This document shows positions 37,756 through 64,000 of a stretch of 64,000 bases of DNA, in pieces. The first letter of the stretch is position 1. Each line of letters opens with the position of its first letter. Under the pieces are notes generated by a model, which saw nothing but the letters and a program-made list of their open reading frames with translations, ran no database searches and was not told where the DNA came from. The translations under genes and the position numbers were made by a program. This DNA is from Candidatus Iainarchaeum sp. (lineage in GTDB: Archaea; Iainarchaeota; Iainarchaeia; JAGGVJ01). The stretch lies in contig JAGGVJ010000040.1 of the NCBI GenBank assembly GCA_021158055.1, positions 1-64,000 of the forward strand. The letters run 5' to 3'.

Positions 37756-38259
37756 ATGGCAAGACAAAACGTGGATCTTGATATAGTGCTGAGCCAGCTA
37801 AACAATGACATGCGTGCGCTTGACACAAAAATAGCGATAATTGTGCAGAGAATCAAATACGTTGAAAAACACGAGAAAATCCTTGCCCAAAACCTCATCA
37901 GCTTAAACAACAAGGTAAAAGAACTGGAGTCCGGTGCCGGCAAAACCACCCAGGACAAAAATGAATCAGGGTTTGGAAAAGAACCCGCAAAAGCTGTTTC
38001 AAAAGTGGCGGTCAAGGAACTTGAAAGCGTAAAAAAGGAACTTGAAAACCTGAAAAAAATCGAGGGGCTGGTAAAAGAAAATTCCTCGAAAAGCAAGGAA
38101 ATTTTGATTGAACTCAAAAAAATGAAAGACGATTCTGTAAATATTCAGGACTTCAACCAGTTGCGTTACGTGATAGACACTGTCAACCCGCTTCAGTTCA
38201 TTACTTTTGACCAGGTAGAAGAACTGATTGAAAAAAAATTCAGGGAAAAAAAACTTTAA
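37756..38259 (+). CDS. Coiled-coil hypothetical protein
   Basis: Heptad-rich sequence; C-terminal LRYVIDTVNPLQFITFDQVEELI looks like a conserved motif. Confidence 0.75.
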   Translation: MARQNVDLDIVLSQLNNDMRALDTKIAIIVQRIKYVEKHEKILAQNLISLNNKVKELESGAGKTTQDKNESGFGKEPAKAVSKVAVKELESVKKELENLKKIEGLVKENSSKSKEILIELKKMKDDSVNIQDFNQLRYVIDTVNPLQFITFDQVEELIEKKFREKKL

Positions 38260-38333
38260 ACACAAAACTTCGCTTTATTCCAGCCAAATATCCCAATCAA
38301 AACCTTTCCCGTTCAACAAGACAAGCAAACTGC

Positions 38334-39878
38334 CTATTTTTCAAACCTGCTTAAAGTGGGCCTGACCTTAACGCGGTAAGGCCGTCCTGCAACTTCTTTT
38401 ACCGCGACCTCTCTTTCCGCGATCACTTCAATGTCCAGTGTGGAGGACTCAACCATCGAACGGTCAAGATGATGCCTTGTTTCGGCAAGGTAACAGCACC
38501 CAAGCCCGTAGTTTTGGCATTCGCCGCTCAGTTTTATGAATTCCGACTGCATTACTGTCGGGTTTTCACCAAACATCAATTCAGAGTGGGGTATGACCAC
38601 GACTCCCCCAATGCTTTTGCTGTGGTTTTCTTTTTTGAACTTTTGAAGCACAATTTCAAGAACAGAATAAACCATAAGCACGCCGACTTCTGTGGAGTAA
38701 TCTGAAAGGTCTACGTGGGACACCCTGCCCATCGAGCCCCTCCATCCGCCAATGATGTCATCAACCTGGTTTTTCCCTCCAAAGGCATTTTCGTTTGACT
38801 TCTCAATCACTTTCAAAAACCTTACCGCGCGGTTTATCTGGAACCTGTTCCCTTGTTTTCTTTGAAGCTTGTCAAAAATTTCCTTGACTGAAGTAATTGA
38901 CCCTTTTGACTCAAAAATTGTTTCCTCGATGAGATTGGCTGCCTCGTTGTCCCCGAGGTTGAACGCCTGTGAAAAAACCCCTTTCGGCAGCAAATTTAAA
39001 TCCACGTGAATGTCTTTTCCCGCAACAAATTTTTTTGTCGGAAACCCGATCGGCTCAAGGTCTATTTTTGACTCCGCAAACTTTGAAGTGTCGTTGGAAG
39101 GCAAAGATATACCCTTGAACTCCGCGTCCATGTCAAAAATCAGTGCAGGAACATTGTTCAGCAAAGATCCTTCTGCAATCACTTGTGTCACTGCGGCGCG
39201 GTTGCTCTTAAGGGAACCTGAAATAACGGCTTTCAAAAGCGACTGCACAGAAATTTTTGCAATTGTGCTGTCGGAAGTAAGGCCAAAAACAAACTCTCCC
39301 GCAATTATTTTTGATTTCGTGCCTTTGATTGACGCCGGATACGCGCCTGTATCCGTCGCGGATCTTACGGCTGCAGATGCGACAATCATCAAGGGTTCTG
39401 AATAAAACTGCATTTCAGCAGCTTTTCCCGCTTCCTTCAGTGAAGTGAATTCAATATTGTATGCTTTTCCTATTTCTTTTATGGAAACTGAAATTGATTC
39501 AAGGTCTTTGTTCATTTCCTGCACGGCGTTTGACAGCTCTTCTGACTCAAGCCCGACGTATTTCGGGTAAGCGGGAATCACCGCAAACTTGAATGACTTG
39601 TCTTGCGTGTGCTTTTCAACAATGATTATGTCGCGTTTTATGGCGGATGCAAAGTGCTGCACGTCACCCACGACAGTGTATATCTTGTTGAACATTACAA
39701 CCATTCCCTTAAGGCTCTTGCCTTTCCCGTCAAACACAATAGTTAAAGTGTCCTTGTCCGGGTTTTGATACACCATAAGAGAATTTTTTTGAAATTCCCC
39801 TGAAAAAAGTTGTACCCAGGGGCCAAAAGGCAGTTTTAGTATGTTCATTTTATCACTTGAGTCATATCCTTGCGTCAT
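38334..39878 (-). CDS. HerA/VirB4-like (DUF853/DUF87-type) ATPase homolog with degenerate Walker motifs
   Basis: KAVISGSLKSNRAAVTQVIAEG...VPALIFD aligns by eye with the HerA P-loop region; VVVIPHSELMF occupies the Walker B position; YGLGCCYLAE corresponds to the GV...TQ motif. Confidence 0.65.
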   Translation of the reverse strand: MTQGYDSSDKMNILKLPFGPWVQLFSGEFQKNSLMVYQNPDKDTLTIVFDGKGKSLKGMVVMFNKIYTVVGDVQHFASAIKRDIIIVEKHTQDKSFKFAVIPAYPKYVGLESEELSNAVQEMNKDLESISVSIKEIGKAYNIEFTSLKEAGKAAEMQFYSEPLMIVASAAVRSATDTGAYPASIKGTKSKIIAGEFVFGLTSDSTIAKISVQSLLKAVISGSLKSNRAAVTQVIAEGSLLNNVPALIFDMDAEFKGISLPSNDTSKFAESKIDLEPIGFPTKKFVAGKDIHVDLNLLPKGVFSQAFNLGDNEAANLIEETIFESKGSITSVKEIFDKLQRKQGNRFQINRAVRFLKVIEKSNENAFGGKNQVDDIIGGWRGSMGRVSHVDLSDYSTEVGVLMVYSVLEIVLQKFKKENHSKSIGGVVVIPHSELMFGENPTVMQSEFIKLSGECQNYGLGCCYLAETRHHLDRSMVESSTLDIEVIAEREVAVKEVAGRPYRVKVRPTLSRFEK

Positions 39879-40035: not shown

Positions 40036-40992
40036 ATGTATATATCTTATGTGGTTAACGTGAGCAACATTGAATCCATCATAAAAACGATGATTAAATC
40101 AGGTTCTTCCCCTGAAAGCGTGCGAAACACTCTTTTGGAAATGGGTGTTTCAAAAGAGGCAATCGAAAACTCCTTTAAAAATGAAAACACAGCTGCTGCA
40201 CAATCACCTCAAGCAACTGATCAAGCTTCACAGCCTGCGCCGGACCAGCAACCTTCGTCATCAATTGACCTTTCAAACTTTGAGCCTGCAAAAGAAACCA
40301 TTGCGCAAACAAGCGACAATGCTGCGCAAACAAGTGAAAGTGCTGCACAGCCAAAGGATAACATTGCCGGATCATCTCAGCCGCAGCCGGTTCAGCCGCC
40401 TTCGCTTCAAAAAAAACAGGAAATGTTTCCAGCAACCAGCGAACCGCAACCAACGAACAACGAACCGCAATCACCCGTAGGCCTGTCTGAAGCCACCAAA
40501 CCTGTAGAAACAGCAGGCGGTTCTGCTGACACTCAAAAATCCCTTGACATAACTGACATGGACAAAAAACTTGCAGAGCTAAAACAACAGGTTGAGTCCA
40601 TACCGGTTGACAACATAACTTCAAGCATGGAACTGCTTAGCCAGGAAAGAAGCGAGGGTTTGTCAGAACACAGCAAGATCATTTCTGAGCTCAGTGAAAA
40701 GGTCTCGCAGGTCCAGGACAAGATTGATTCAAGTTCACCTGACAACATTAAAGAGCTTACTTTGGCTGTGGACGACTTGAGAAAAATGCTGAATGAAATG
40801 AAGCCCATGGTATTTGCCCTTCACGAGATCGACAAAAAGATACTTGACACAAACAGGGAGGTCCTTTTTGAGCTTGCTGAAAAAATCCACGCCCAAAAAC
40901 AGGAAAACCCGGTAAAAAGCAATACTGCTTCAACACCAAAGCCTTCGGTTGCAGAAAAGGAAAAAACCAAAAAATCCGTTAAAAAAAACTGA
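40036..40992 (+). CDS. Hypothetical protein: small helical N-domain, Gln/Pro/Ser disordered linker, C-terminal coiled coil
   Basis: Composition and heptad pattern. Confidence 0.75.
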   Translation: MYISYVVNVSNIESIIKTMIKSGSSPESVRNTLLEMGVSKEAIENSFKNENTAAAQSPQATDQASQPAPDQQPSSSIDLSNFEPAKETIAQTSDNAAQTSESAAQPKDNIAGSSQPQPVQPPSLQKKQEMFPATSEPQPTNNEPQSPVGLSEATKPVETAGGSADTQKSLDITDMDKKLAELKQQVESIPVDNITSSMELLSQERSEGLSEHSKIISELSEKVSQVQDKIDSSSPDNIKELTLAVDDLRKMLNEMKPMVFALHEIDKKILDTNREVLFELAEKIHAQKQENPVKSNTASTPKPSVAEKEKTKKSVKKN

Positions 40993-41081: not shown

Positions 41082-41414
41082 TCATCTTCCTCTTTGAGGG
41101 GGTTCGTCATCTTCCGGGGGTTCTTCCTTGTTTGAATCCAGTATTTTATTGGTTGTTTTACGGGCTCTTTTCCATGCCTTAACAGTTGTCGGAACAGGCT
41201 TGAAAGTTGATCTCGGGTACGGCTTTGAACCGGAATGCTCTTCTTCGTCTTCTTCAGCGTCGTCTGAATAGCTTTTCGGAGCTGATTTGATTTCGGACAA
41301 CACCACCAAAAACGCAATCAATGCAAGGACAAACCCGATTGCCTGGCCTGTTCTTTTGTCAAGGACAAAAAATATAACTGCAAGAAACAATAACAAAACC
41401 GGCAAGTACTTCAT
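41082..41414 (-). CDS. Small 2-TM membrane protein with charged tail
   Basis: Two N-terminal hydrophobic helices; GGTGA RBS. Confidence 0.7.
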   Translation of the reverse strand: MKYLPVLLLFLAVIFFVLDKRTGQAIGFVLALIAFLVVLSEIKSAPKSYSDDAEEDEEEHSGSKPYPRSTFKPVPTTVKAWKRARKTTNKILDSNKEEPPEDDEPPQRGR

Positions 41415-41485
41415 TTTTTCACCATTTGACCTTTAAATCCTGATTTCACCCTGACTTTTGAACATTACCTAGATTTGAATTTGGT

Positions 41486-41803
41486 TCAGTCGCCGCCAAG
41501 GCCAACCGCGTTCCTTATGCCTTCACCGAATATCGACAGGAAAATTATTGCCGCGACAAGCCACACAAGCGTCGGGTGCGTCCAGATGGTCAGGTAAACA
41601 AGCGCAAACCCGACTATCCAACCGACAAACCCAGGCAAGTGAGAACGGCCCCAGTTGATTATCCAGACTGAAAATATTATCAACAAAGCATACCAAATCT
41701 GTATGTCGCCGAAAATGTTGGTGTTGAACAACTGTGACATCGTGAAAAGCACAGGGCTTGTTGAAACATTCAAAAAATCCATGTAAATACCTTCATTATC
41801 CAA
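41486..41803 (-). CDS. Small 3-TM membrane protein with internal PGF motif
   Basis: Hydrophobic segments; ...RSHLPGFVGWIVGFALVYLTIW... Confidence 0.7.
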   Translation of the reverse strand: MDNEGIYMDFLNVSTSPVLFTMSQLFNTNIFGDIQIWYALLIIFSVWIINWGRSHLPGFVGWIVGFALVYLTIWTHPTLVWLVAAIIFLSIFGEGIRNAVGLGGD

Positions 41804-41846: not shown

Positions 41847-42485
41847 TTATCGACAATAGCACATCCTGTCTCCAGTGTAATCGCAAGCAAACCTTGCCTG
41901 GTCTTCATTGAACACCTTTTTCTCTTGAGAGTCTTTAATCTCATCAAGTCTAGAGCCAAGTCTGGAGCCCGAGCCTGAAACTAAACAATAACCATTCCTT
42001 TTAATAATACCATGATCAAGGGAAACGCATGCGTCATCGCAACACCCAATCTTGTCATCCATACAGCTTGCAGGCAAATCGCGGATGTTTTTGTTGGTGC
42101 TTAAATCATTATTCCACTCATCGTCACAATAACTTACCAGGTTTTCAACAGTTATACTGCTTAATTCTTCAACAATATCACTATTATATATTATGGTGCA
42201 GGACTTAAAGCTTCCAAACTGCTCCAGTTTACTGGTATCTGTTTGTTTTTCCGGGGTGGCAATGATATCAAAAGAGCATTTTGGGGTACTATACGCTTCT
42301 ATATTTGTCAAACTGACATAATCAACAGCCAGCCTGACTTTTCCACACGAAACACTATCAATCAGTTCAGACTCAAATTCCAAGCCGGGGCACTCGTTCT
42401 TAAAATTGTCTTTTGTGCACCCGGAAAGAAGCACAATCCCAAACAAAAAAATTACCACAATCAAGTTTTTACATGCAACGCCCAT
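41847..42485 (-). CDS. Cys-rich lipoprotein
   Basis: Hydrophobic leader ending in lipobox LLSG-C; 14 Cys in the predicted mature part. Confidence 0.78.
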   Translation of the reverse strand: MGVACKNLIVVIFLFGIVLLSGCTKDNFKNECPGLEFESELIDSVSCGKVRLAVDYVSLTNIEAYSTPKCSFDIIATPEKQTDTSKLEQFGSFKSCTIIYNSDIVEELSSITVENLVSYCDDEWNNDLSTNKNIRDLPASCMDDKIGCCDDACVSLDHGIIKRNGYCLVSGSGSRLGSRLDEIKDSQEKKVFNEDQARFACDYTGDRMCYCR

Positions 42486-42501: not shown

Positions 42502-45500
42502 TCATTTAGCAAATCCTCTTATGAACTCAACAATTATTTCATCCAATTCATCTTCACAGGCATCCAATTCCAGACCCTGCCCACTGTTTATAAAACATAT
42601 CTCCGGCGGTCTTTCATCACCATAATCCTTATCTTCGCACACCGGTCTTTCGTCTGAACCCATACTGAATATCAACCCCGTGATTATCAACTCACTGGTT
42701 GGACTCAAACTGTCATCTTTGTTTCTCCTGACTACTTTTACCGGCGTTACTGTATTTGTCTTTCCGATGTCTGACATTTGCTTCCCGTCAATACTAACGT
42801 CTCCTTCAAGTATTTTAAGATACTTTCTCTGAATGTTTTCTACAACTTCCTCTGAACTGCCTTTTACAACCACTGAAACTTTCTGGCCTGTTCCCGCGGG
42901 AGCAGAAGGATTCCAACTCATGATTGCAAAAATTCCGTCGTATTTATTGATAAGATTCACTACTCTTAAACACGCGCTTTTATAGGCATCATCTTCCTTT
43001 TCACAACGGTTTTCATCAAGATTTTCCCCTACATACCTTGCAAACAGATTAAATTGACTGTTACCGGAGGCACGCGACGGTGAAAGATTTCCTGCCAATC
43101 CCTCAATGCCCTCAATCCCAGCTGTGTTGGAGTATTCAACATCAAACATCTCCTCAAAAGGCAAGCTGTATGTTCCTTTCTGCACGCCGGAACCGTCACT
43201 AAGCGGCGCAAAAAACAACGGGAAATACTTCGGCAGGTTTATCACGCCGAAATTGCAGTTGTAAGTGGACTTGCTGTCAGCTTCCTTTCTGTCAACTTTT
43301 ACGATATAGCTGTTTTCACCATCCCTCGTGTAAATCCTTTTCCAGACACCGCAGGACATCTTTTTCGGACTAACCTCAAATTTGATTGACGTCGGGCCTG
43401 GACTGCTTATGTCACTTCCAACAACAAAAATTTCCTTGTCCCAGCTTAAAAGTTTAAGGCGCGCAGGAGAAATTCCCCCGAGTTTAAACGGGGATTCCCC
43501 CCGATCATCTCTGAACACACCCAATGCAAGAGACATAATCCCATTGTATTCCTCATCTGTAAAAGCAAATTTAAATTCATTCTCGTGAATATTAGCTCTT
43601 TTCAAATTTCCGCCATCCAACGGAGAACTGAAAAGGAAAAGATACAATTCGTTCAAAAGCTTGAAAGTTGTCTGGTCGCAGTAATGCGTGTTGCATTCCC
43701 TGAACAGTTTGGAAATGTCTTGCGCTGAAAACCCTGAAACTTCACTGCCGTCGTCGTCAACAATTATTTTGTTTCCGTTGAACATCGCAGCAACTTCGCT
43801 AAACCCCCTGCTGTCTTCTTTCACCTTGAAATTGCCGCCCGAGGTTTTCTCAACCGGCTGGTCTTCCAGTGCTTCTTCCCCGAAAATCGTGGCGAAAAGA
43901 GAGTCGTATTCAATAGTGCACTCTGTTCCGATTACGTTCACCCTGAAATCTGCAATCTTATTTTCAGGTTCGCTGAATCCTTCAAGAAGCTTTGTTTCAC
44001 CCCGACCGACAAAAGTTTCAGAAAGGTCATAACCGTAATTGGTTGTGCCGGAAGTCGTCGAACTCTCAAGGAAACGAACTCCCTGCTTTCCTTTGTTCTG
44101 CGCCTTCAGCCCTTCTTCGGAGTTGATGAAAATAAGTGTCGAGTTCAGGTCAGAGCAATTCAGATATTTCTTTTTAAAAACATGGCTGCACTCTGTAGCC
44201 GCTTCACTTTCTTCTTCTCTTTTCATGCTGTATTCTATGCTGAACTCTTCTTCACTTTCACCGAAACTGACAAAAAGAAGATCAGATTTCCCGGATTCAA
44301 TAATCACATCCTTGTCAGTCCCTGCGAAATTCGGATTTTTCGTTATTGTGACTTCTGCATCTGACTTGTTGTCAATAAACAGGCCGCCCAGCGAGTCGCT
44401 CAACTCAAACGATACCTTGTCGCACAGCTCGCTTCCGTAGACACAACCGTCGTCACGGTTAACGTTCACGGTTACTTTTTGTTTCGGGGCAGTTTCTTTT
44501 GATTCGCCGATGTAGATTGCAAGCACCCACTTGCCGTTGTCGTCAGTCAAATCGTCACTCACTTCCGCTTCCAGTTCAAACGTCTTTGCCTCGTCAATCA
44601 ACAGTTTGTGTTCCTCGCTGAACTCTTCAAGAACTCCTTCTTTTTCAGCTTCTTCGTCATCGCCGGTAACTATCTCAAGAATCGTTGCAGTGGCCAAACC
44701 CTTGTCTGATCCTTCCTCGTCTTCACCCGGCAAAAGCTTGAAATACAGGTCAATGGCGTCTTCTGAAATGTTTTTCAAATCAAACTTGATTGACTCTGTT
44801 TTTTTGTCCTGCATGCACATGTTGTCAAAAGAAATGCTTTCAATGGAGGTTTCAGTGTTTTGCTTGAGCACTTTCACGTAACTTTGCCCGCTTTGCGGTG
44901 AAATGCTCACTGAAACAGGCAAAGTGGCTTCAACAGGTTCGCCTGAACAGTCAACTGTAAGAACATACTGCCCTGAAACAGCCAGATTGCCTGTTATTGC
45001 CTTTTCTTTGTCTATTTCCGCCACAAGTTCAATGTCTGTAAGCGCGCTGCTTTTGTCAGTCCATTTTGAAAACGCTGTTTCAATGTCCCCTCCGGAGCTT
45101 TTGCTTCTAAGCAACACGTTCAGCTCAAAATCACCCGCGACAGTGTCGCCGCTTAAAACAATGAATTCCTGGCCTGAAAACGAACTGATGTTGCAGGAAC
45201 AAACAGTTTCTATTTTTATCCCCTGCAGTATTTTTGACCTGTTGCCGGAATCAAGCAAAAATTCTGCTTCCTGATCGCCTGAACCGTAAGATATCCTGAA
45301 GCAGTCGGAAGAACCGTGCGCAGTCACTTTGAACGGCAGGGTTGTAATATGCAGCTTGTTGTCGCTGTCTGATTTGCCTGCAACGAAAACATATCCTTCA
45401 AAGCTTGGATCACTTGCGGTTTCAACGCTCACCCACGCTTTCATCTTGAAATCAAGAGTGGAGCCGTTTTCAATTTCCCTTCCCAGAATAATGTTTTTGA

Positions 45501-55300: not shown

Positions 55301-57670
55301 ATTCATGCAGATTTCCTGCGTGCATTCAACCGTATTTTGCGTCACTGAAAATTCAACGGGTGTGGTGGCTGCGTAAAGCGGCTGTTTTCCTTCAGAGTCA
55401 ATCAAAGTTCCAAGTTCTTCGTCAAACGGGCTTCTTTCCATGCCGCCCAGGTTTATGTAAGTCCAGCCCCTGAAATTGAATTTCACTCTCTCGCCCAAAA
55501 CCACGTTGTCTTTCACCTGAACTGCAAAGTCCACAACATGCGTTCCTTTCCCGACATCTTTTCCAACCACCTGCACCCACTTGTTCATCTGTCCTGAAAG
55601 CGTGGTTCCTGCCATGTCAATATCCTGTCCAAGCGGGGGGTTGTGGGTCGTGCCTGAAGACGGTTCTCCCATCGCCTGCATCACTCCCGTGATTGCAACA
55701 TTGTCTTTTGCTGAAAAGTCGTTTTCTTCAAGGCCTGTCATCAAAAACAACCCTGCCTCGTCTGACGCGGCGGCCGTGTTCAACGCGACTCTTGCGCGGT
55801 ACTGCTTGCTTTCAACAACGCTTTCTACCCTGTTTCCGAACCTGTCGAACAAGCCGATGAAAACCGCGCCCGTGGAATCCGCGGGGCTGAAAAGCTGTAC
55901 ATCTATGCGGTTTTCTTTTGAAGAGTCAATGTTTATGACATGGGAAAAGTATTTTGCGCTGCCAGGCGATTCAACGACTGCGTAAGCCTGTATGCCTTCA
56001 ACAACGTCAAACTCGGCAACCCCATTTGAATCCGTGACAGTCGGCGACGAAAGCTCTTTGCCTAAAACCGTTGCCGCATTGTCAAATAAAATCACGCTTG
56101 CTCCTGAAACCGGGTTTTCTTCTTTTGTCACTTTGACCGTGACTTTTGTCTGCGTTGCGCTTATGTCAATCATTGGTTCCTGCGTGGTCGGAGTTTCCAC
56201 TGGTTTTGCCACTCCGACTTTGGAGCCGACGTATGCCTTTGCAATGACTGTCTTGTTGTTCGGAACGTCGCTGAACTCCGCGCAACCGCTTGAACCGGTC
56301 AATTCTGACGGGATTCCCAGCACTTTTGACGCAGTCTCAAAAAGAACAACCGGCACACCGTTTAACGGTGCCTTGGTGTCTTCTTCGCGGACACACACTC
56401 TAAGGGTTGATGTATTTTCCTTGGTTGACAGCTCCATTGAAGCCAAAACTGATTCCCCTGCCCCGACATCTGTCCTGACAAACGGGACATAGTTGCCTGA
56501 GTAGACAGAAACCATGTATTTTTTTGACTTGTCCACAAGAACTTTTCCTGTCCCGTCGATGTCCTGCGATTTCACGAGAACGCCGTCCAGATAAACGTTT
56601 ACGGCTGCTTCAAGGGGTGTTCCGGTCATGGTTCTTGCAGTGACGTTTATAAAGTCGCTGTTTGCAAAATCAGCTGTTGAAATAATCATTTCAAGTTTGT
56701 TTTCAGCGTTTGAAAGGACCTGAACGGCTTTTTCAGTCTGGCTCAAGTACTCTTCTTTTGACACCGTCACGTTGTAAAGTCCTGGTATCAGCCCTCTTAA
56801 AACTGTTTTTCCGTCAACGTCGGTCTTTTCAGAAGACGCGAGTTCTGCAACGCCTTTTGGGCGGGCTTCAACCTCCGCTCCTTCAACTGCATCGCCGTTT
56901 ATGTCTTCAATGTAAACCAGTAAATCTGCAGGTTCGCTTTCATCGGCTTCAAGGCTTATGGAGAGCTCCTGGTCTGAGTTGAACGTGAATGTTTCGCTTT
57001 TTTCCTGATAGCCCGGGGATGTGAAAACAAGGTCAATGTCTTGTCCCTGCGGAACTATCGCTTCAATTACCCCGTTTTCTTTTATGGTGTATGTTCCAAG
57101 GTCTTCTCCTTCTTTCATTACCTTGACTGTGCCTTCCCTTACAATGCTGTCAAAATCGGTTGTGACTCTCATCACTACTTTCACGTTTGTTTTTTCAAGT
57201 TTTGAAAGCGAAAAATCCTGCTGAAGCGAAGTGAAATAAAAGGATTTGTCAAGGGTTTCGTAGTCATACTTTGTTATCTCTACTGTGCCGTAACTATTGA
57301 GCTTGTCGAAATTTTCTATTGTTGCAATTCCTTTTGAATCGGTTTTTCCGATAAACGAGCTTAAGGTATCCGGGTAGGTTATCCTGACATCAGCCCCTTC
57401 AATGGCTGCTCCTGTTTCCGCATCAACGACTTTTACCTGAAGCGTTCCAGAGGCGGGGGTGCCAAGCATGAAAAACGCGACAAGCCCAATGAAAAAAATC
57501 GTCAAAAATAACGGGAAAACAGGTATGTTCTTGTCTTCAAGCGCGTCTATTACGCGGTAAACAGGGATTCCGTGGTCATCCACAAAATCCATCAAACCAA
57601 AAAACTTGTTTTCCACGCCGTAATAAAAGTCGTTCAAATTGTCTTTAACTGACTTGGATGCCAACTTCAT
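49373..57670 (-). CDS. Giant (2765 aa) surface protein, paralog of 42502..48741, with C-terminal hydrophobic segments and long coiled coil
   Basis: Same N-terminal module (FYYGVENKFFGLMDFVDDHGIPVYRVIDALEDKNIP plus TM) and Cna-B-like repeats; last ~620 aa are helical with three Gly/Ala-rich hydrophobic stretches. Confidence 0.87.
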   Translation of the reverse strand: MKLASKSVKDNLNDFYYGVENKFFGLMDFVDDHGIPVYRVIDALEDKNIPVFPLFLTIFFIGLVAFFMLGTPASGTLQVKVVDAETGAAIEGADVRITYPDTLSSFIGKTDSKGIATIENFDKLNSYGTVEITKYDYETLDKSFYFTSLQQDFSLSKLEKTNVKVVMRVTTDFDSIVREGTVKVMKEGEDLGTYTIKENGVIEAIVPQGQDIDLVFTSPGYQEKSETFTFNSDQELSISLEADESEPADLLVYIEDINGDAVEGAEVEARPKGVAELASSEKTDVDGKTVLRGLIPGLYNVTVSKEEYLSQTEKAVQVLSNAENKLEMIISTADFANSDFINVTARTMTGTPLEAAVNVYLDGVLVKSQDIDGTGKVLVDKSKKYMVSVYSGNYVPFVRTDVGAGESVLASMELSTKENTSTLRVCVREEDTKAPLNGVPVVLFETASKVLGIPSELTGSSGCAEFSDVPNNKTVIAKAYVGSKVGVAKPVETPTTQEPMIDISATQTKVTVKVTKEENPVSGASVILFDNAATVLGKELSSPTVTDSNGVAEFDVVEGIQAYAVVESPGSAKYFSHVINIDSSKENRIDVQLFSPADSTGAVFIGLFDRFGNRVESVVESKQYRARVALNTAAASDEAGLFLMTGLEENDFSAKDNVAITGVMQAMGEPSSGTTHNPPLGQDIDMAGTTLSGQMNKWVQVVGKDVGKGTHVVDFAVQVKDNVVLGERVKFNFRGWTYINLGGMERSPFDEELGTLIDSEGKQPLYAATTPVEFSVTQNTVECTQEICMNYGFSRAITGEEIKDLTASEAYLSAVYSLGIEVQAKQDLEDLQVEILNSDASLDFVSYHYLGTQTQLDDEAHALAVNLESLGKNRGTGLEAVFVPTAENNSASVKIIVKRSGEVLIEKELFLKVVAGLGLSVFVEPEMAVAGEKTQFMITVLRAGDFEAVTDATIKLVNNIGKPLGNKTITITGKDKRNRGRNGVYATTIEPASGVIAVNVSADHFAEETILVRVGKEAAIAIDEDPFVIEIPLNIKTATKQLAIKNSSSKKLTDLQVVVERDEGFPDDDFSLELDDASITRLLGPGETTYLTFTSGYFPDSTDSASAEATIKIFAVKDNEYVTAQGRIKLLYAPKIDAQVIAECLEVTPSQTEFVVGSEDLDTAFNSMEVVLKNNCGIDLSNIVAYSSNDLDGGIFVLDCNGNQVIEGTGEEESTVIELLSADSLSGENKATVLVTFQADTLDDSENNAEDDDVVGTLVFRGENGSQDVSGELDYAVVFLDEAAALDVENKVKLKLKAGESLDILDGNAEKLVLKNRGSVTFKNIRISEKAEDWEINPNIYVNYLSETEASSTIDELEPEDTTHFEIEVDASGYSGEAGRMTGTLVIDADVYYKNKPGKVTSVSREVGLIVEIVPEEEGCLKVISSESIDFVSTTAYFDEIKSSVVIKNECGKRITRFVDFIPLNDFRLYIDFSEGSKRSLFDGETAQFDFRLKRVSKRAAIVSDSFQKGVFIAGETSSDTEILSELIMINVEIGSDLKTSDFTTEYLVHSCDPDIGITKTVSIPTKAGLSGDCSDGYCDGMQAAEYVIEKADRFMDKILTAFEGKKIRDIGCGSSKRNICTFEELLQSGLVPQDDWILNGVDLFLMDDRVTLEALKRAKTNVVSRYFNGQIVSGDYREMVNSGRISTGGDIYYDYDSHYDYDSHYDYDSHYGYDSHNDYDSHNDYDSEELLRKCGWYKVKFKPVFFARDGEIGSQFSIFVETSYVGETAACEGNALHMSTLLPWDNLSSEDAAEMKNTVFVIPKNEEDSFKGIVEEIASGLSGTELDYNLLEKDGRVKTSLDVVGGKNVVKLLFRDSANLTKEESELVDILNKDIGYPAYGVIHHDVSKFGSNIFELVIDKNALGDSSEDLNKSIGTAVSAFVEIASGAKPIGCYFGSQSTSKREGDRAKIDSFVITGLTEAPLNAKDAGRNECVFANGNWKIILPEFEGRVEVDKDGRTLIVKDAEALASLIACECTAALISFDTGTGIYGGYKIKYTGEDFTKDVFRDKIHNLRDKENEPAWATCVADVDEKFWGSTFSSDFWGESMLTDDCHSCRPEIRWSGLMTTEDGNEKVMKGDDGVKLRMNIEIKESPTINTCPAMNSACTIVTGVAVARGGAALMSWNPAGAGASAGLFVADQLVDFLVVDEILKVGFDHMAYKNKFKEAGEGFTDISTLTRSPYYTPMIAAGITAGPTAAGAICSYKKLGEEVVESSGKLKKVKGALAQPFRRLYPAIRQFKIQRAVASQVLEPDALDSSGKQLKLLVLGNKNYLDNYNIKKEIAESYKNAAGKWSKYADTLDEIARLEDDISKLDGKVAGLTKERDAILAGMKIDTAGMGDDLVYKAHLDALDTVNKEIDDSKKALKDVLDNLSKTKPAELDVKGLESAFKNANDTMNLNMEQVKGIEETITQNRAALNDLSPRLDDAGHLFKQNKQVLLEGIDEFMTAPGDTLDDMDRKFITDFRDMVNKGDDPAKLADAVSEIKGNSAFSNLTMGYDSALDNVLTSLSDFKKIEIDTSNLKKGIQTLEQGKTNLVKETGELNKLSGDIVKTMDASNKELTVRRELLKEVKDTQKMFSEFEAERVENLKKVNEQFENVWKLQGKIEGGALGKEKLLETQNELTARKGQLETDLRSLADEGVNFSDEGDDVTDALLKNTEKHSEFVAKSNEMTKGVEETEKKLESLKKVKRINPLGSAAIAGACWALDVYIAQHDNCIVTFEEV
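52488..52592. repeat. 18-bp coding tandem repeat encoding (Y/N)DYDSH, ~6 copies
   Basis: gaatcataatcatagtgt units; protein reads YDYDSHYDYDSHYDYDSHYGYDSHNDYDSHNDYDSE. Confidence 0.93.
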
Positions 57671-57842: not shown

Positions 57843-59648
57843 TTAACAACTTTCGCTTGCTGAGCCGGTGCACATGTCACACGACGATACTGACATGAAG
57901 TTGTCAACACACTGGAGATCAAGCCCTTCAACATAAGGCAACGTGCTCCTTGTTGCCCCCTTCCATTCTTCCTTGAGGTCTGCCCTTACACTGTCACTTA
58001 CACTGTTTTCCCTTGCCAGTGAAACGCAGAACACAAACGGGACAGAAATGCCCCCGTCATCGGATGTCGTTGAACTCATCGGGGCTTCCATCGGGTGATA
58101 AATAATCTGGTTTTCTTCCGGTTCAAAATGAGTTGTCCCGTAACCCCCCGGTATTCCAAACCCCTTATCCACAATGGTAAAACAGGCATAAGCAGCTTCC
58201 GGAACCTGCGCGCAAAGCGCCGGCTTCAGGTTTACCTGGTCTCCAAAAGGATTTGAAATAATGCCTGATTCAGGGTACTGCACATAAGAAGTGCTTCTTG
58301 AGCACCCGTCAAAAACACCTGCTCCGTTGTCAACAGTGTACCTGAAGTACTTTGTGGGGAAAACCACTTTTTCAAGGAAACCTAAAGAATGCCTGTTTTT
58401 ACTTGAATTCAGCCCTTCGCGAATAAAAAACTGCGCGCCTGAAAAAACACCATCAATTTTCCCCCTGTACTCAAGAGTGTCAAAATACAACGGCGCAAAT
58501 TCAATGTTGCCGGCACTTGACTTCAGTTCCGAATTATTGCCTGAAAGAACACCCCCTATTTTTTCTGAAACACTGTCCATGTAACTTTCGGCAGTTATCT
58601 CGCCTGAAGCATAAACATCGTCGTATTCTGAATCAAGGCATTTTCTTTCAAAATCCGTTTCAAAATACGGGGGGGTTTTGGGGTCATAGTGCACCCACAC
58701 CGGCAAAGAAACTTCCGAAGAATCCGAAACAGCCACTGAAATTTCTTTTGTGCAGTCAAGCCGTGATTTTTTTCCAAAATACTCTGCTTCACCATAAATT
58801 TTGCAATCCACAGGATAATCCGACCCCCTCGTCATGCAATCGCATCCCTGTGCGCCTGTTGATTCCAGGTCGCACAAGCCCCACGGTTTTATTTTACCAG
58901 GCCCCTCCAGATTCAGAATTTCGTCCTGGATCGCAAAGGCAATGTCTGCTGCTTTCATAAACCTTATCGGAACAGGGACAATCAGGCTTCCCTCCGGGAT
59001 CACAGAACTGACGCTTTCTTCCCCAGTGAGATTGTTTGTCATGACTATCCGCGCAATCTCATCGTTGCTTAAGTCGGCCGGGGGCTTTATTTCCACTGCA
59101 AACGAACCGTCTTTTGAACTGAAACAATCATCTGGAAAAACAAAAATATTATATCTTGTGAGGCTGCCGACCAATCCAATACTATAGTCCCCGATATTTA
59201 CAAGGTGTTCTGAATCAGTATCTTTAAACTCTCCAACCACGTCAAAAACGCTTGAAGTCATATTTGTCAATAAACTTGTCCTGACACCGGATTCAAAAAA
59301 ATCCTTCACGACCGTGCAAAAAGTGCCGCGGTCAGTTGAAACAAAAATGGCTTCTTCAAGGTCGTTGTTAAAATACTTCTTCAAAAACATATTGTGGGTC
59401 TGGGCCTTAAACTGAAAAATCACCGTGTGAATCGCATCCATCCTTGCAAAATCAAGAGTCGCCGACTCCTTCAGAGAAGACTGGTAGTCAACAATGACAC
59501 TGACCCTGTTTTTTTCAGTGTTTATTATGTTTACTATCATTACAAGAGCAATTACAAGAATCACCATCCCGACAAGCGGGGTAAACAATGTAAACCCTTT
59601 TTTCATCTTTTGCGACACTGACATACCAGGCAACCAGGTTTTTTTCAT
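57843..59648 (-). CDS. Large pilin-like protein with class III signal peptide and Cys-rich C-terminal domain (~600 aa)
   Basis: ...QKMKKG|FTLFTPLVGMVILVIALVMIVNII; start placed at ATG 59648 after AGGTG; the upstream ORF extension overlaps the archaeosortase gene. Confidence 0.72.
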   Translation of the reverse strand: MKKTWLPGMSVSQKMKKGFTLFTPLVGMVILVIALVMIVNIINTEKNRVSVIVDYQSSLKESATLDFARMDAIHTVIFQFKAQTHNMFLKKYFNNDLEEAIFVSTDRGTFCTVVKDFFESGVRTSLLTNMTSSVFDVVGEFKDTDSEHLVNIGDYSIGLVGSLTRYNIFVFPDDCFSSKDGSFAVEIKPPADLSNDEIARIVMTNNLTGEESVSSVIPEGSLIVPVPIRFMKAADIAFAIQDEILNLEGPGKIKPWGLCDLESTGAQGCDCMTRGSDYPVDCKIYGEAEYFGKKSRLDCTKEISVAVSDSSEVSLPVWVHYDPKTPPYFETDFERKCLDSEYDDVYASGEITAESYMDSVSEKIGGVLSGNNSELKSSAGNIEFAPLYFDTLEYRGKIDGVFSGAQFFIREGLNSSKNRHSLGFLEKVVFPTKYFRYTVDNGAGVFDGCSRSTSYVQYPESGIISNPFGDQVNLKPALCAQVPEAAYACFTIVDKGFGIPGGYGTTHFEPEENQIIYHPMEAPMSSTTSDDGGISVPFVFCVSLARENSVSDSVRADLKEEWKGATRSTLPYVEGLDLQCVDNFMSVSSCDMCTGSASESC

Positions 59649-59721: not shown

Positions 59722-60324
59722 TTACCTGTCCCTTGCTTTCTGCAAAAACTGTTTTGCCGAAAAACCTGCTTTTTCAAGCCAACCGATATACCTTTCAAGC
59801 CACCCAAGGTACCATGCGGCATAAAACACAAACGTAAACACAAAAAGGCTTGCCCTGAAAAGCGTATTGTGGGTGAAATCCGCTGCTTCCCAGCCAAACC
59901 ACACCCCGGTTGCAAGAGTCAATGCAATGCGGACCGGGTTAAACAAAAGAACTGCAAAAAAGCCAAGCCCCGCGCCGACTGCCCTGCTTTTCAGAGTCCT
60001 GTCAGTGCTTGAAAAGACAGCCGCAAAAAGAACAGCTATTTCAAGGTCGCCTGAGCAAATCCTTGAAATCACTGCCGTGAACGGGTAAAACAGGTCAGAA
60101 AAAATCAACGGCGCAGCCCCTGAAAAAATACCGGGCGTCATTTCTGCCCTGATTCCCAAAACCGCAAGCACTGCAACTGCAGAAACCGCGCTGAATGCCT
60201 GCAAAAGAGGGGTGAGCAAAAGGGAAATCAAAAACGAGACCGCTAAAAAAAGAACTGAAAATAATGCCGTGAACTTTGCTGCCCGGATTAACTCAAAACG
60301 AAGAATATTTATTGGAATACGCAC
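59722..60324 (-). CDS. Archaeosortase/exosortase family membrane transpeptidase
   Basis: Multi-TM protein with Cys-Arg-His triad in family context: ISRICSGD, FNPVRI, DFTH; GTG start after AGGTGA. Confidence 0.85.
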   Translation of the reverse strand: MRIPINILRFELIRAAKFTALFSVLFLAVSFLISLLLTPLLQAFSAVSAVAVLAVLGIRAEMTPGIFSGAAPLIFSDLFYPFTAVISRICSGDLEIAVLFAAVFSSTDRTLKSRAVGAGLGFFAVLLFNPVRIALTLATGVWFGWEAADFTHNTLFRASLFVFTFVFYAAWYLGWLERYIGWLEKAGFSAKQFLQKARDR

Positions 60325-60336
60325 TTTTTTCACCTT

Positions 60337-62631
60337 ATGGGTGAAATGGATAAGGGCAAACATGTAATTAAAAGTGAGGGTGGCAAAAAAACCCTTGTAA
60401 TCGATTACAGGAACTCAAAAACCGGGGCAGACATCGCAGAATACGCCGACTGCATGGAACAAGTGCTCTCTCTTTTGAGAACAAACGACGCTGACTTAGT
60501 GGTTTTGGCTGACCTGTATGAAAGGGTCTACGACGAAAAGCAGACAAAAATGCTCAAAGAAATAGCTGACCTGGCAAATTTGTTTGAAACAGAAAACCTT
60601 TGGGGCTACACATATCTCGGAAACGTAAAAACAGAAAGCGAAGTGACTTTAAGCGAGAGGCACAACCTGGTGGTCAAAATTGCCCACGACCTGCTTTTGC
60701 GCGACCCGATAAAGGCATACCTGACTCTTCTTGACACCCTGAAAAAAGAAAAAATGAGAGCAAACGCAGGAGGAAAAACCTATCCCGTCGTGTTCCTGAA
60801 AACACTGGTGTTTGTCAAAAACAAGCTTGAGGCAACCAATCTTATTTCCGTCACAAAAAACCTGATTTTAAGGCTTCACAAAGTCCCGACGGGACGAGGT
60901 TTTTATCACTCGTTTTTTGACGCGCAGATAAAGCCGTCTTTTGTGGGTTCAAGGCTTCTTTTCAAAACCGACGAAAAAGTTGAACTGGTTGACCAGTACA
61001 ACGTTCTTGACGCGGAAGTGCGGGTCTACAGGCACCCTGAAAAAATCGCTTTAATGTATTACATCAACCCGCCCGAGTACTCGCTTTCGCCTGAAAAATA
61101 CTTCATCTTGACAAAAACAAAAGAAGTCGTTGCAAAATACAGGCCCACAAACACAGAATTTTCAGATGCTTCCCAGTCAAGGAAATACTTCGAGCACATT
61201 TACCAGGCAACCATAAACGACATTGCAAAAGAAAACAGCATTTCCATCTCACCGCGGGAAAAAGAAGCGCTTGCAAAAATAGTGGCGCGCTACACAATCG
61301 GCTACGGCGTGCTTGAACTCCTGTTGTCTGACAGGAAACTGACAGACGTTTACCTTGATGCGCCTCTCGGAACCAAACCTATTTATGTTGTTCACGGCGA
61401 ATACGGGCAGTGCCAGACAAACGTAATCTTCACAAACGAAGAAGCCCGCTCAACAGTATCCCGGCTCAGGGCGCTTTCAGGCAGGCCTTTTGACGAAGCC
61501 CACCCTGTCATGGACTTTAACCTATCCTCGCTCCAGACAAGGGTCGCAGTCATCGGCCAGCCCCTCAGCCCGCACGGCATAGCGTTTGCGTTGAGGCTTC
61601 ACAAGACCACTCCCTGGACTTTGCCCCAGTTCATTGACGCGCACATGATTGACCACCACACAGCAGGCCTTTTGAGCTTTCTCGTGGACTCAAAGGCATC
61701 CATGCTCATAACCGGCTCAAGGGGTTCGGGAAAAAGCTCCATGCTTACCGCGCTCATGCTTGAGATCCTTCAAAACCTGAGAATCATCGTCCAGGAAGAC
61801 ACCCTTGAAATTCCCGCGCCGTACCTCAAAAGCATCGGCTACAACATCCAGCAGCTCAAAACCCAGAGTGCGATTTCCGTGGGAAGAACCGAAAACGAAG
61901 TAAGCCCTGACGAGGCATTGAGAACAGCGCTTCGTCTGGGTGACTCTGTCCTGATCGTGGGTGAAGTGAGATCAAAAGAAGCAAGAGTGCTTTACGAGGC
62001 AATGCGTATCGGCGCGGTGGGAAACGTTGTCATGGGGACCATTCACGGCGAAAGCGCTTATTCCGTGTGGGACAGGATTGTAAACGACCTTGAAGTGCCG
62101 AACACTTCCTTCAAGGCAACCGACATGGTCCTTGTCCAGGCCCCTGTTAGATTCAAGGGCTCGCTCAAACGGCACAGGAGAGTAATCCAGCTGACTGAAG
62201 TGAAAAAGCACTGGCAAAACGACCCTGCCGCAGAAGAGGGGCTTCTTGACCTGCTCTCTTTTGACGCTTCAAAAGACGGGTGGGACCTGTTAAAGGACAA
62301 CTTCAAGGACTCCGAGTACTTCCCGAAACTCAAGCGCACAACCGGCATGAGCATTGAGGAAATATGGAAGGACATAAAACTGCGCGGAGAATCAAAAAAA
62401 TACCTTGTCGACTCAAAAAACAAATTTGAAATCCCTGCTCTTCTGGAAGCCGAAAACACTGTTCCGATGAACAACAAATTACTGCTGATGGCTGAAGAAA
62501 TGCGCAAATCCGGCGGAGGCATGGACTACGACAAGCTTCTTGAATCATGGAAAAAATGGGTTGACAACCGGTATGTGAAAGAAATAATTGCAAAAAAAAG
62601 GCTTGTTTCAACACGTAAAATCAAAAGGTGA
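60337..62631 (+). CDS. Type II/IV secretion (VirB11/TadA/ArlI-like) ATPase with long N-terminal extension
   Basis: GYGVLELLLSD, Walker A GSRGSGKS, QEDTLEI, ALRLGDSVLIVGEVR, GTIHG. Confidence 0.93.
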   Translation: MGEMDKGKHVIKSEGGKKTLVIDYRNSKTGADIAEYADCMEQVLSLLRTNDADLVVLADLYERVYDEKQTKMLKEIADLANLFETENLWGYTYLGNVKTESEVTLSERHNLVVKIAHDLLLRDPIKAYLTLLDTLKKEKMRANAGGKTYPVVFLKTLVFVKNKLEATNLISVTKNLILRLHKVPTGRGFYHSFFDAQIKPSFVGSRLLFKTDEKVELVDQYNVLDAEVRVYRHPEKIALMYYINPPEYSLSPEKYFILTKTKEVVAKYRPTNTEFSDASQSRKYFEHIYQATINDIAKENSISISPREKEALAKIVARYTIGYGVLELLLSDRKLTDVYLDAPLGTKPIYVVHGEYGQCQTNVIFTNEEARSTVSRLRALSGRPFDEAHPVMDFNLSSLQTRVAVIGQPLSPHGIAFALRLHKTTPWTLPQFIDAHMIDHHTAGLLSFLVDSKASMLITGSRGSGKSSMLTALMLEILQNLRIIVQEDTLEIPAPYLKSIGYNIQQLKTQSAISVGRTENEVSPDEALRTALRLGDSVLIVGEVRSKEARVLYEAMRIGAVGNVVMGTIHGESAYSVWDRIVNDLEVPNTSFKATDMVLVQAPVRFKGSLKRHRRVIQLTEVKKHWQNDPAAEEGLLDLLSFDASKDGWDLLKDNFKDSEYFPKLKRTTGMSIEEIWKDIKLRGESKKYLVDSKNKFEIPALLEAENTVPMNNKLLLMAEEMRKSGGGMDYDKLLESWKKWVDNRYVKEIIAKKRLVSTRKIKR

Positions 62632-62635
62632 AAAA

Positions 62636-64000
62636 GTGCGCGAAAGAAAAAAACAAAACCAGGCAAACAGAAAAACCCGCGACACCGAAAACATTGATGT
62701 CAAGCTCCCGGGATCACTGATTTACGGGGAGCGCGAAACAGATCCGGTCACAAAAACCGCTGATTCAAAAAAACCAGGAAAAAGCGGTTTTGTGAAATTC
62801 TGCAAGTGGAGCTACAGGCGCATAAAATCAAAAAACTCCAAATTTGACGAAAAATACAGGCAGGCAATTGACTTTCTCGGCTGGAACCTCACTGCAGACG
62901 AGTTTGCTTCAGGACAGAAAATGTCTATGGTCCTTGGTTTTGCATTGTCTGCAGTGATTGGACTGTGCGCATCCTACTTTGGCCTGATTTCATTATCAGG
63001 CGGCATTTCAATGGACAATCTTCCATTCCTTGGCATGCTTGCGGTGATTCCGATGGCCGCTTCGGCGATGGTTGTCAAAATGCCTTTAAACGCTGCCGAA
63101 ACAGAAAAAATGAACTCCATGACTTACGTTCCTGAAATCGTAAATTACCTTGTCATGAGCATGAAGCTGTCGCCAAACCTTGAAAAGGCAATCCAGTTTG
63201 CTGCAGAGCACGGGCGGGGAAAGATCGCCGACGATTTCAAAAAGCTGTTGTGGGACGTTGACATCGGAGTATACAACACTGTTGAGGAAGGCCTTGACGA
63301 CCTCGCGTACAAATGGGGGGACTACAGTTCTGTCCTGAAACACGCCTTGATGCAGATTCGCGCTTCAGTGATTGAGGCAAACGATGCAAGGCGCCTTGCG
63401 TTGCTTGACAAGGCGGTAGCCGATGTCATTGAAGGAATCAAGGCGGAAATGAGCACTTACTCGCGAAAACTGCACGCGCCCGCGATTTACCTTTATTACC
63501 TCGGGGTCCTCCTGCCGCTTATGCTTGTGATCATCCTGCCTATCGGCTCCGTGTTTACCGGGGCAGGCCTTGCTGACAGGAACCTCTTGTTTGTGCTCTA
63601 CAACATAATCATACCGACAGCCACTTTCCTTTTTGCAAGAAACCTCCTCAAAAAAAGACCCCCGACTTACACCCCGCCGGTCATCCCCGATGACTTTCCG
63701 GGAATCCCCCCAAAACACAAGTTGTTTTACGGGAAAAACAAAAAAACATTCCCTGTCCTGGCACTTGCAATAATTGCTGCTTTGGCTGTTCTCCTGTTTT
63801 CATTCATGGCAAACAACACAATTACTCAGCTTAGCTTTTCAGGCACCGACTTTGGCATCGACCCTTTTCACATGGTCACGCTTGAAGAGGCAAAAAACAA
63901 CATCTGGGGAACTTTCAACGACACCGGGTTTGAATGGGGCGGAATAAAATATGTCACTCCGATCTGGATGATCTACGGAGTTCTTTTATCGGTTGTTTCC
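62636..64000 (+). CDS. TadB/TadC (T2SS F-domain) membrane platform protein, truncated by the window end
   Basis: Read by eye (absent from the ORF track): GTG after AGGTGA; ...PEIVNYLVMSMKLSPNLEKAIQFAAEHGRGKIADDFKKLLWDVDIG...LYYLGVLLPLMLVIILP. Confidence 0.85.
   Translation, partial: MRERKKQNQANRKTRDTENIDVKLPGSLIYGERETDPVTKTADSKKPGKSGFVKFCKWSYRRIKSKNSKFDEKYRQAIDFLGWNLTADEFASGQKMSMVLGFALSAVIGLCASYFGLISLSGGISMDNLPFLGMLAVIPMAASAMVVKMPLNAAETEKMNSMTYVPEIVNYLVMSMKLSPNLEKAIQFAAEHGRGKIADDFKKLLWDVDIGVYNTVEEGLDDLAYKWGDYSSVLKHALMQIRASVIEANDARRLALLDKAVADVIEGIKAEMSTYSRKLHAPAIYLYYLGVLLPLMLVIILPIGSVFTGAGLADRNLLFVLYNIIIPTATFLFARNLLKKRPPTYTPPVIPDDFPGIPPKHKLFYGKNKKTFPVLALAIIAALAVLLFSFMANNTITQLSFSGTDFGIDPFHMVTLEEAKNNIWGTFNDTGFEWGGIKYVTPIWMIYGVLLSVVS

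Follow-up and report, generated by a model that had tools for sequence, protein, structure and literature searches.

What do the genes at the far end of this stretch of archaeal DNA build together? The stretch, here called the window, comprises the first 64 kb of the 100,473-bp contig JAGGVJ010000040.1 of Candidatus Iainarchaeum sp. A first-pass annotation had proposed that its last 26 kb encode one envelope machine for contact with other cells, made of a Tad-like motor, an archaeosortase, a pilin-like protein, two giant proteins and a Walker-less HerA-like ATPase. All genes listed there were found at their places, and the remark that these 26 kb hold no housekeeping gene is borne out from position 37756 onward, with the gene of a DNA polymerase forming the flank. 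The window proves to be one end of an Iainarchaeota-specific gene block, which extends beyond position 64000 to about contig position 75274. We favor the reading, at a probability of roughly 0.55, that the type IV pilus genes of this block and the operon of archaeosortase and giants facing them build one surface-appendage or adhesion system.

The window's own genome, coded G000, is a 1.15-Mb assembly in 45 contigs. Genomes for comparison were all drawn from the same class (Iainarchaeia), the set containing no closer relative, and formed two samples, one of 41 genomes and a wider one of 121 genomes of the phylum. Synteny was followed through 50-76 kb around homologs in 13 relatives and through shorter regions in 5 more, by mapping the window's proteins with phmmer onto the six-frame open reading frames (ORFs) of these regions. 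Relatives are coded G002 to G129; the family labels f3, f9, f11 and f14 and the genus label g6 are likewise codes of this analysis. Related proteins bear the source name Candidatus Diapherotrites, and related genomes are labelled Iainarchaeota (DPANN). The first 15 kb of the window hold split RNA polymerase subunits together with archaeal ribosomal and elongation-factor genes.

Comparison of the relatives reveals one recurring gene order. Starting from the end that lies outside the window, it reads (PAC2), SP1451, tmZn, pilins, TadC-like platform and ATPase; then, head-to-head with the ATPase, ArtX (the archaeosortase), G1, pilL, G2, tm143, G3, G4 (G1 to G4 being the giants), tm105, lc318, HerAL (the HerA-like protein), cc167, PolB (the DNA polymerase) and M24. 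The part from SP1451 to G4 is seen in most of the 13 relatives with long regions and in further relatives. Three units can be distinguished in it: the pilus set; the run of archaeosortase, pilL and giants; and the group of tm105, lc318, HerAL and cc167. The head-to-head pair of ATPase and archaeosortase, with a giant next to it, is present in every family examined, including f3 with its shortened sortase, and is the most constant feature of the block. The first-pass annotation had itself named synteny in relatives as its test, and synteny is what we find for the pilus motor, the archaeosortase, the prepilin-like protein and the giants. As a background control, the 25 genes of G000 upstream of M24 and the 23 downstream of SP1451 were sought in the fetched regions of the relatives, and a matching place was found only for x323 (in G026) and PAC2 (in G008 and G040), a modest control given that the relatives' flanks span just a few kb each. 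An additional pilus set lies inside the block in G033.

The pilus set begins with an ATPase of the FlaI/TadA/VirB11 type (60337..62631, plus strand), a protein of 764 amino acids (aa) with long N- and C-terminal extensions. It matches Pfam T2SSE with an E-value of 2.5e-19 (69.6 bits, cut-off 24.9) and the NCBIfam models FlaI (E 7.7e-41) and TadA (E 1.1e-38), both under the equivalog cut-offs. Its full-length orthologs display 48-59% identity, and matches at E<=1e-120 occur in 109 of the 121 genomes; a search of a collection of genome contigs with the ATPase yielded two loci, one of which is an unrelated bacterial paralog. The adjoining gene (62588..contig 64843, plus strand, crossing the window end) encodes a TadC/FlaJ-like platform protein of double, fused length, with 751 aa and nine hydrophobic segments. 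The window's copy matches Pfam T2SSF (PF00482) weakly, at E 0.012 in truncated form and with nothing at 0.01 at full length, while T2SSF is found at E<=0.01 in 14 of 17 aligned members of the family (16 orthologs plus the unmatched window copy; best E 5.6e-7). Alignment of the platform with the other TadC of the contig by hhalign gave no support (probability 1.2).

Seven genes for small class III pilins follow the platform gene (contig 64840-68803). Class III signal motifs are present in all seven and, judged by eye, the motifs KGQ|AF, GQE and KGF are kept across their orthologs; a scan with pilin family models of the Pfam/NCBIfam type gave no match among them. For prepilin peptidase (A24, PF01478), four matches in G000 exceed the cut-off, and the contig of the window carries one of these at 85877-86203. 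Judged by its sequences, the set qualifies as a type IV pilus or type IV filament system, with an ATPase, a platform beside it, class III filament proteins and a prepilin peptidase in the genome.

Some observations on pilus genes stand apart from this argument. The same contig carries two further pilus-like gene sets (L001:14682-19969 and L002, contig 76682-85408), and one ATPase of these sets bears an N-terminal 4Fe-4S ferredoxin domain. In ten genomes (G022, G041, G047, G063, G066, G077, G079, G080, G103 and G129), the orthologous ATPase resides in open frames of ~1275-1360 aa, and the match is interrupted around query residue 490, which resembles an intein insertion.

On the opposite side of the shared start region lies the gene of ArtX (59722..60363, minus strand), an archaeosortase-family protein of 213 aa that scores 33.8 bits against TIGR04178 (cut-off 23); matches to the subfamily models ArtD, ArtB and XrtH are all far below their cut-offs. 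The residues C103, R145 and H165, which we take to be the Cys, Arg and His of the archaeosortase/exosortase active site, are conserved in 90% or more of the 17 sequences aligned. As listed, the ORFs of ArtX and the ATPase overlap head-to-head by 27 bp (60337-60363), which leaves very little room for a shared promoter and makes it probable that one of the two genes starts further downstream. A search with the single protein was positive in 26 of the 41 genomes and seemingly left f3 without an archaeosortase. A family model, however, detected short forms of 140-173 aa, 150-230 bp from the ATPase, in four of the four f3 genomes tested, and the idea of a loss in f3 was dropped. ArtX adjoins the ATPase in all regions examined, the short f3 forms detected by this model included, and in genus g6 of f3 a giant begins just past the short sortase. 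The same model found no sortase in one f11 genome tested (80% complete).

The operon headed by ArtX carries the giants, and among them pilL (57843..59648, minus strand), a protein of ~600 aa with the class III prepilin signal KG|FTLFTPLV. The motif KG|FTLFT is conserved in 13 orthologs situated between G1 and G2, and the nearest Atlas clusters of pilL are unnamed proteins of Candidatus Iainarchaeota. The presence of a prepilin-signal protein amid the giants ties the giant operon to a pilus-type assembly machine.

The window holds two giants, both encoded on the minus strand. Each starts with a segment of ~50 aa, followed by a single membrane helix and transthyretin-like beta-sandwich domains, and in each more than 1000 residues after this stalk match no family. 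Giant A (2765 aa, 49373..57670), which has Pfam and NCBIfam matches, begins with the N-terminal motif and the membrane helix, continues with the beta-sandwich stalk and a region rich in cysteines, in which weakly hydrophobic segments occur at 2007 and 2171, and ends in a coiled coil. It is G1-like, with position-1 giants as its best matches (185 vs 84 bits). Giant B (2079 aa, 42502..48741) has the N-terminal motif, one membrane helix and beta-sandwich domains ahead of its unmatched region; it matches Pfam CarboxypepD_reg at E 3.8e-22 and the N-terminal module of the giants (alignment A2, 38 rows) at E 4.5e-27, and its orthogroup is ambiguous (89 vs 86 bits). A phmmer search of both against PDB sequences gave 0 matches at E<=1.

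Relatives possess four giants of 2200-3450 aa, and one of them five. The N-terminal module is found in 40 of the 41 genomes, with 4-7 copies in the larger genomes and 1-3 in f3 and f11. When giants are assigned by summed BLAST scores, those at positions 1-4 best match the same position of G008 in 9 of 11 relatives, the exceptions being G024, with a fragmented third giant, and G020, where the first two positions are unassignable. This pattern indicates four old and distinct paralogous subunits rather than interchangeable variable adhesins. Among 18 giants of relatives, 17 match beta-sandwich stalk families only, within the first ~1030 residues, and one matches nothing; family scans detected no protease, nuclease or other enzyme domain in the giants. 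Past the stalk, the alignment of G1 heads displays many invariant cysteines, as expected for an extracellular domain. In position-4 giants, an internal stretch of strong hydrophobicity around residue 1500 precedes DPC(D/E); the Gly-rich segments of position-1 giants, around residues 2000-2100, are weaker. For residues 1050-2249 of giant A, AlphaFold (11-row alignment) gave a model of low confidence, with a predicted local distance difference test score (pLDDT) of 48.5; its Foldseek matches are generic tandem Ig-like repeats, including the S-layer protein SbsB, at template modelling scores of 0.15 or lower, and give a weak hint of beta-sandwich repeats. Two position-3 giants (G040, L050:10976-19507; G030, 100015-107751) stand out by their 88 and 56 cysteines, compared with 18-34 in the others.

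The candidate partner of the archaeosortase lies at the far end of the pilus operon. Beyond position 64000 the seven pilin genes are followed by tmZn, a membrane protein with a zinc ribbon, and then by SP1451, a secreted protein of 1451 aa whose gene ends the cluster at contig position 75274. At its C-terminus, SP1451 has a motif with a proline, then a hydrophobic helix and finally a basic tail, and homologs with an LPxL-type motif, helix and basic tail are kept in G000, G008, G030 and five f3/f11 genomes. These features make SP1451 the best candidate for a substrate of ArtX. Co-occurrence of ArtX and the SP1451-type tail across genomes is uninformative as a test of this assignment, as the single-protein search had missed the short sortases.

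Taken together, these parts suggest how the system might work. Its core is a type IV pilus-like system of ATPase, platform and seven class III pilins, served by prepilin peptidases encoded elsewhere and coupled head-to-head to an operon of archaeosortase, large prepilin-like protein and giants. From the small pilins, motor and platform would build a short pilus or a pseudopilus, and pilL would enter this filament, thereby linking it physically to the giants. The giants are probably anchored by their N-terminal helix, with a stalk of ~10 beta-sandwich domains carrying a disulfide-rich head. The archaeosortase would process a protein with a C-terminal motif, membrane helix and basic tail, SP1451 being the most suitable one. 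All parts together could form a cell-surface fiber or adhesion structure, with attachment as its likely purpose.

Several observations weigh against this reading. The giants display neither a class III signal nor a sortase-type C-terminal signal, and only gene order links them to the pilus or sortase machine. The window's giants are far more diverged (185 and 89 bits) than the others are among themselves (480-1450 bits), and the block holds two of them here compared with four in relatives. As many as 33 ORFs of G000 end in a helix and basic tail, with several different motifs, so that the sortase substrate is not pinned down. In G012 the giants, ArtX, the ATPase and SP1451 are all dispersed, with the SP1451 homolog far from the pilus genes, and in G028 SP1451 lies ~200 kb away from them; physical linkage is thus not obligatory. 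Finally, the block also includes PolB and a methionine aminopeptidase, and conserved order does not always mean shared function. With housekeeping genes at its end, caution is due at the edges of the block in equating the one with the other.

This caution applies above all to HerAL (38334..39878, minus strand), the 514-aa protein that the first-pass annotation had described as HerA-like and Walker-less, a description that our analysis confirms. Its HerA fold follows from the AlphaFold model built on the 21-row alignment A1 (pLDDT 82.1) and from Foldseek, where the matches listed are chains of HerA or the HerA family (HerA complexes, TdpA and untitled entries), with 4d2i as the best (E 3.6e-13). 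A profile search of PDB sequences also reaches HerA 4d2i (E 9.3e-6), and the Atlas look-alikes are DUF87/HerA_C clusters. At the P-loop position, placed from the strand-loop-helix of the model and the start of a weak DUF87 match rather than by residue-level structural alignment, the family consensus is hhGGxxxDRxH; GK[ST] is absent in 20 of 21 sequences, and the window copy reads GSLKS. The Walker B position reads hhhP and contains no acidic pair. Lacking conserved Walker A and B motifs, HerAL is predicted to be inactive as an ATPase. A canonical NurA-HerA pair, together with Rad50, is encoded on another contig of G000, which makes HerAL an extra, inactivated paralog. It is a single-copy core gene, present in 39 of the 41 genomes and in 119 of 121 in the wider sample, and its family is small and lineage-specific, a search of 1.84 billion proteins yielding 185 cluster representatives at E<=1e-30.

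HerAL is surrounded by three small genes. cc167 (37756..38259, plus strand), convergent with the HerAL gene, encodes a soluble, probably helical or coiled-coil protein of 167 aa that matches no family at E<=0.01 and yields weak coiled-coil-type matches only. Its ortholog adjoins the HerAL gene in 16 of 17 relatives. lc318 (40036..40992, plus strand), divergent from HerAL, has 318 aa, in which a long linker of low complexity joins a small helical domain at the N-terminus to a helical C-terminus; for lc318, as for cc167, the coiled-coil label derives from weak family matches only. Orthologs of lc318 stand beside HerAL in 10 relatives by phmmer and, by eye, in G012, with G028 and G012 included despite their giants lying elsewhere. 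tm105 (41486..41803, minus strand), a 105-aa protein with 3-4 membrane helices by hydropathy, is the last conserved gene of the co-oriented run; in 11 relatives its ortholog comes after the last giant and before the HerAL unit, and in G028 and G012 it stays with HerAL. HerAL, tm105, lc318 and cc167 form a separate conserved unit, usually located beside the block.

Whether this unit belongs to the same machine as the giants is the point on which the readings diverge. One alternative holds that all parts, including a ring of dead HerA, cc167, lc318 and the small membrane proteins, form a single attachment or channel machine with the HerA ring as its cytoplasmic hub. Of the 27 relatives in the 121-genome sample whose HerAL and ATPase genes share a contig, 22, from 12 families, have the two genes 36-66 kb apart, with HerAL following directly on the last giant and tm105; in the window, tm105 is co-oriented with the giants and separated by short gaps. 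In G012, cc167 stands beside the archaeosortase instead of HerAL. In several giants, hydrophobic segments rich in Gly and Ala lie within the chain and could enter a membrane, and the conserved motif that precedes the membrane helix of every giant, taken as cytoplasmic, needs a partner. Yet in the remaining five relatives, G028 and G053 of f14 and G012, G075 and G098 of f9, the gap widens to 96-131 kb, and the same-contig count is biased toward linked pairs, since in fragmented assemblies unlinked pairs fall on different contigs and go uncounted; among the 16 assemblies of 10 contigs or fewer, near and far cases number 12 and 4. HerAL copies that lie apart from the giants are still accompanied by tm105 and lc318, and those of G028, G002, G016 and G034 by cc167 and PolB as well. 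The strand of HerAL alternates with those of its neighbors, so it is not part of the giants' operon. A predicted complex between HerAL and residues 1-52 of the N-terminal module of the giants scored 0.00 in both runs, the fold of the partner being uncertain, and counts neither for nor against the proposal. We regard the one-machine proposal as unlikely; the claim of the first-pass annotation holds for the synteny of pilus motor, archaeosortase, prepilin-like protein and giants, to which HerAL is only loosely tied, its unit being an unproven member of the appendage system. In its most elaborate form, the whole block would be a single envelope-spanning contact or conduit machine, specific to Iainarchaeota and with no described counterpart. 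The motor would then extend a short filament capped by pilL, surrounded by a heteromeric complex of fixed composition in which G1-G4 provide stalks and heads; the giants would insert their Gly/Ala-rich hydrophobic segments into the membrane of the partner cell and dock with their N-terminal motifs on a cytoplasmic hub of dead HerA ring, lc318, cc167 and tm105. This version we consider quite improbable.

The neighborhood of HerAL can also be read as pointing to the chromosome, with the HerA unit working together with PolB in replication or segregation at the membrane, a proposal that is compatible with the favored one. HerAL, cc167 and PolB are consecutive in 14 of the 17 relatives examined, even with the giants elsewhere (G028, G002), the exceptions being an altered order in G040, a contig end in G030, and G012. 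Both the near-universal, single-copy occurrence of HerAL and its fold, that of a DNA translocase, fit such a role, as does its setting in G012, where it lies with lc318 and tm105 among housekeeping genes, near TFB and a gene whose N-terminus appears ScpA-like by eye (L060:4779-5444). However, its ATPase motifs are not conserved, which leaves no room for DNA pumping in the manner of HerA; the canonical NurA-HerA pair and Rad50 are encoded elsewhere in G000; PolB is 32 kb from HerAL in G012; and the most faithful neighbor of HerAL is a membrane protein. A chromosomal role thus seems to us a tentative option, somewhat on the unlikely side. A further possibility concerns the giants themselves, which might constitute the main, S-layer-like cell coat, the pilus and archaeosortase genes being adjacent through shared envelope biogenesis, with no contact apparatus. 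Conservation of four giants as a set by position, near-universal in the class, sits better with a structural core than with variable adhesins; archaeosortase A of Haloferax matures the S-layer glycoprotein; and SbsB appears, among many Ig-like repeat proteins, in the Foldseek results of the low-confidence model. S-layers are usually made of 1-2 proteins of 40-200 kDa that bear a signal peptide and are anchored by their C-terminus, whereas the giants are four proteins of 250-380 kDa with N-terminal anchors. The 1-3 giants of f3/f11 genomes and the three of G000 are hard to square with a fixed four-part coat, which moreover leaves the prepilin-like protein amid the giants unexplained, and we hold the coat to be a doubtful explanation. 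The last candidate, a mobile element or a DNA-transfer system of the Ced/Ted kind, draws on the proximity of a HerA/VirB4-fold protein to small membrane proteins and pilin-like genes. It is close to refuted: the key genes are single-copy core genes with a fixed place between PolB and PAC2, GC (guanine plus cytosine) content is even over the region (0.42-0.48), no integrase family of Pfam or NCBIfam occurs among the 13 proteins of the stretch, and HerAL is devoid of conserved Walker motifs.

The remaining genes of the region complete this picture. Between the two giants of the window lies tm143 (48877..49308, minus strand), by hydropathy a four-helix membrane protein, whose orthologs follow G2 in G003, G006, G010, G020 and G032. 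A Cys-rich protein with a lipobox-type sequence (LLSGC; 41847..42485, minus strand) has no family match and no relative in the fetched regions. Likewise, tm110 (41082..41414, minus strand), by hydropathy a two-helix membrane protein of 110 aa with a charged tail, has no relative there. PolB (34931..37474, minus strand), a family B DNA polymerase by its match to Pfam DNA_pol_B (E 6.5e-72), is the housekeeping flank outside the apparatus and the sole PF00136 match, and only family-B polymerase, found in the G000 assembly. The third of the giants of G000 resides on contig C13, where the stretch 6560-26447 (L069, L070) holds a distant giant of 2094 aa and a pil212-like pilin. This giant adjoins the canonical NurA-HerA pair, with Rad50 slightly further away; we considered it as a relocated G2-G4 and rejected the idea, for it is a distant member beside NurA-HerA-Rad50 and not one of the missing paralogs. 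Outside the conserved block, 2.5 kb upstream of M24, the window encodes a protein of 1933 aa (26676-32477, minus strand) that combines a LamG domain and a fibrinogen-like piece with four repeats of DUF2341. At 24214-26591 (minus strand) there are two tandem paralogs with DUF1246 and DUF1297 domains, presumably PurP-like.

How DPANN archaea attach to other cells is largely unknown, and the literature searched names neither a cultured member nor a host for Iainarchaeota. The block offers a concrete, class-wide parts list of their surface biology: four position-conserved giants, a prepilin-like linker and a sortase paired with a pilus motor. Such a list can guide cryo-electron tomography, surface proteomics and host searches in enrichments based on antibodies or fluorescence in situ hybridization. 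Two unannotated families are defined along the way, the N-terminal module of the giants and the inactivated HerA paralog, which belongs to the core genes of the class. The constant pairing of archaeosortase and pilus ATPase, for which the literature searched contains no precedent, suggests that two envelope pathways commonly considered in isolation are connected.

Comparison with known systems places the individual parts. HerA, the translocase of HerA-NurA resection (PDB 4d2i, 7wrw, 9x1m), shares with HerAL the N-terminal barrel and RecA-like core as well as the profile match. HerAL differs in that the Lys and Ser/Thr of Walker A and the acidic pair of Walker B are not conserved, in having no NurA neighbor, the canonical pair being on another contig, and in the small size and lineage specificity of its family. 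The Ced/Ted systems, which import DNA in Thermoproteota, combine an active VirB4/HerA-like ATPase with a dedicated polytopic membrane partner. Here, too, a protein of HerA/VirB4 fold lies near small membrane and pilin-like proteins, but the analogy drawn by the first-pass annotation fails at the ATPase motifs of HerAL, which are not conserved, so that a motor is not evident. A polytopic protein resembling CedA was not noticed in the cluster, no search having been aimed at one, and the only faithful membrane neighbor of HerAL is tm105, in a core gene set beside PolB.

For the archaeosortase, the closest point of reference is ArtA of Haloferax, which sorts PGF-CTERM proteins. ArtX resembles it in passing TIGR04178, in keeping Cys, Arg and His, and in the nearby SP1451 with its motif, helix and basic tail; it is short by comparison (213 aa, and 140-173 aa in f3), and the candidate signal is LPxL/PxEP-like rather than PGF.

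Archaeal pilus loci with neighboring large adhesin- or S-layer-like proteins were surveyed by Makarova, Koonin and Albers in 2016 (PMC4858521). As far as the accessible part of that survey describes them, the type IV filament loci have in common with ours the FlaI/TadA-type ATPase, the TadC/FlaJ-type platform, several fast-evolving class III pilins and large neighbors, to which the DUF2341 protein of the window can be added, DUF2341 proteins being compared there to PilY-type pilus tip adhesins (PMC4858521). Our locus departs from them in the head-to-head position of the ATPase with an archaeosortase, in the four position-conserved paralogs of 2200-3450 aa with N-terminal anchor and a motif of their own, and in the 600-aa prepilin-like protein embedded among these giants; the accessible part of PMC4858521 does not mention DPANN, archaeosortase or giants of this kind. 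Within DPANN genomes, a 2019 survey reported, in its accessible text, islands of unrecognizable pilus-like "dark matter" (PMC6393860), and the accessible text of a 2026 survey states that type IV filament models rarely match DPANN, with candidate loci appearing in a supplementary figure only (PMC13705601). An archaeosortase partner, position-conserved giants and an inactive HerA go without mention in the accessible parts of all three (PMC4858521, PMC6393860, PMC13705601). The literature searched, with figures and supplements lying outside its coverage, contains no description of this cluster; S10 Fig of PMC13705601 and Figure 2A of PMC6393860 could show related loci.

The giants themselves call to mind the SPEARE proteins of Nanohaloarchaeota, which are giant surface proteins (PMC6642349), and the giant genes of Omnitrophota (PMC10066038). 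According to the accessible portions of these two reports, the likeness lies in very large, multidomain, membrane-associated proteins of small-genome lineages thought to be contact-dependent. The giants described here differ in having no detected enzyme domain and in forming a fixed four-member set of paralogs tied to a pilus locus. Viewed against all these systems, the cluster is a locus of the type IV filament kind whose accessory parts are unusual and conserved.

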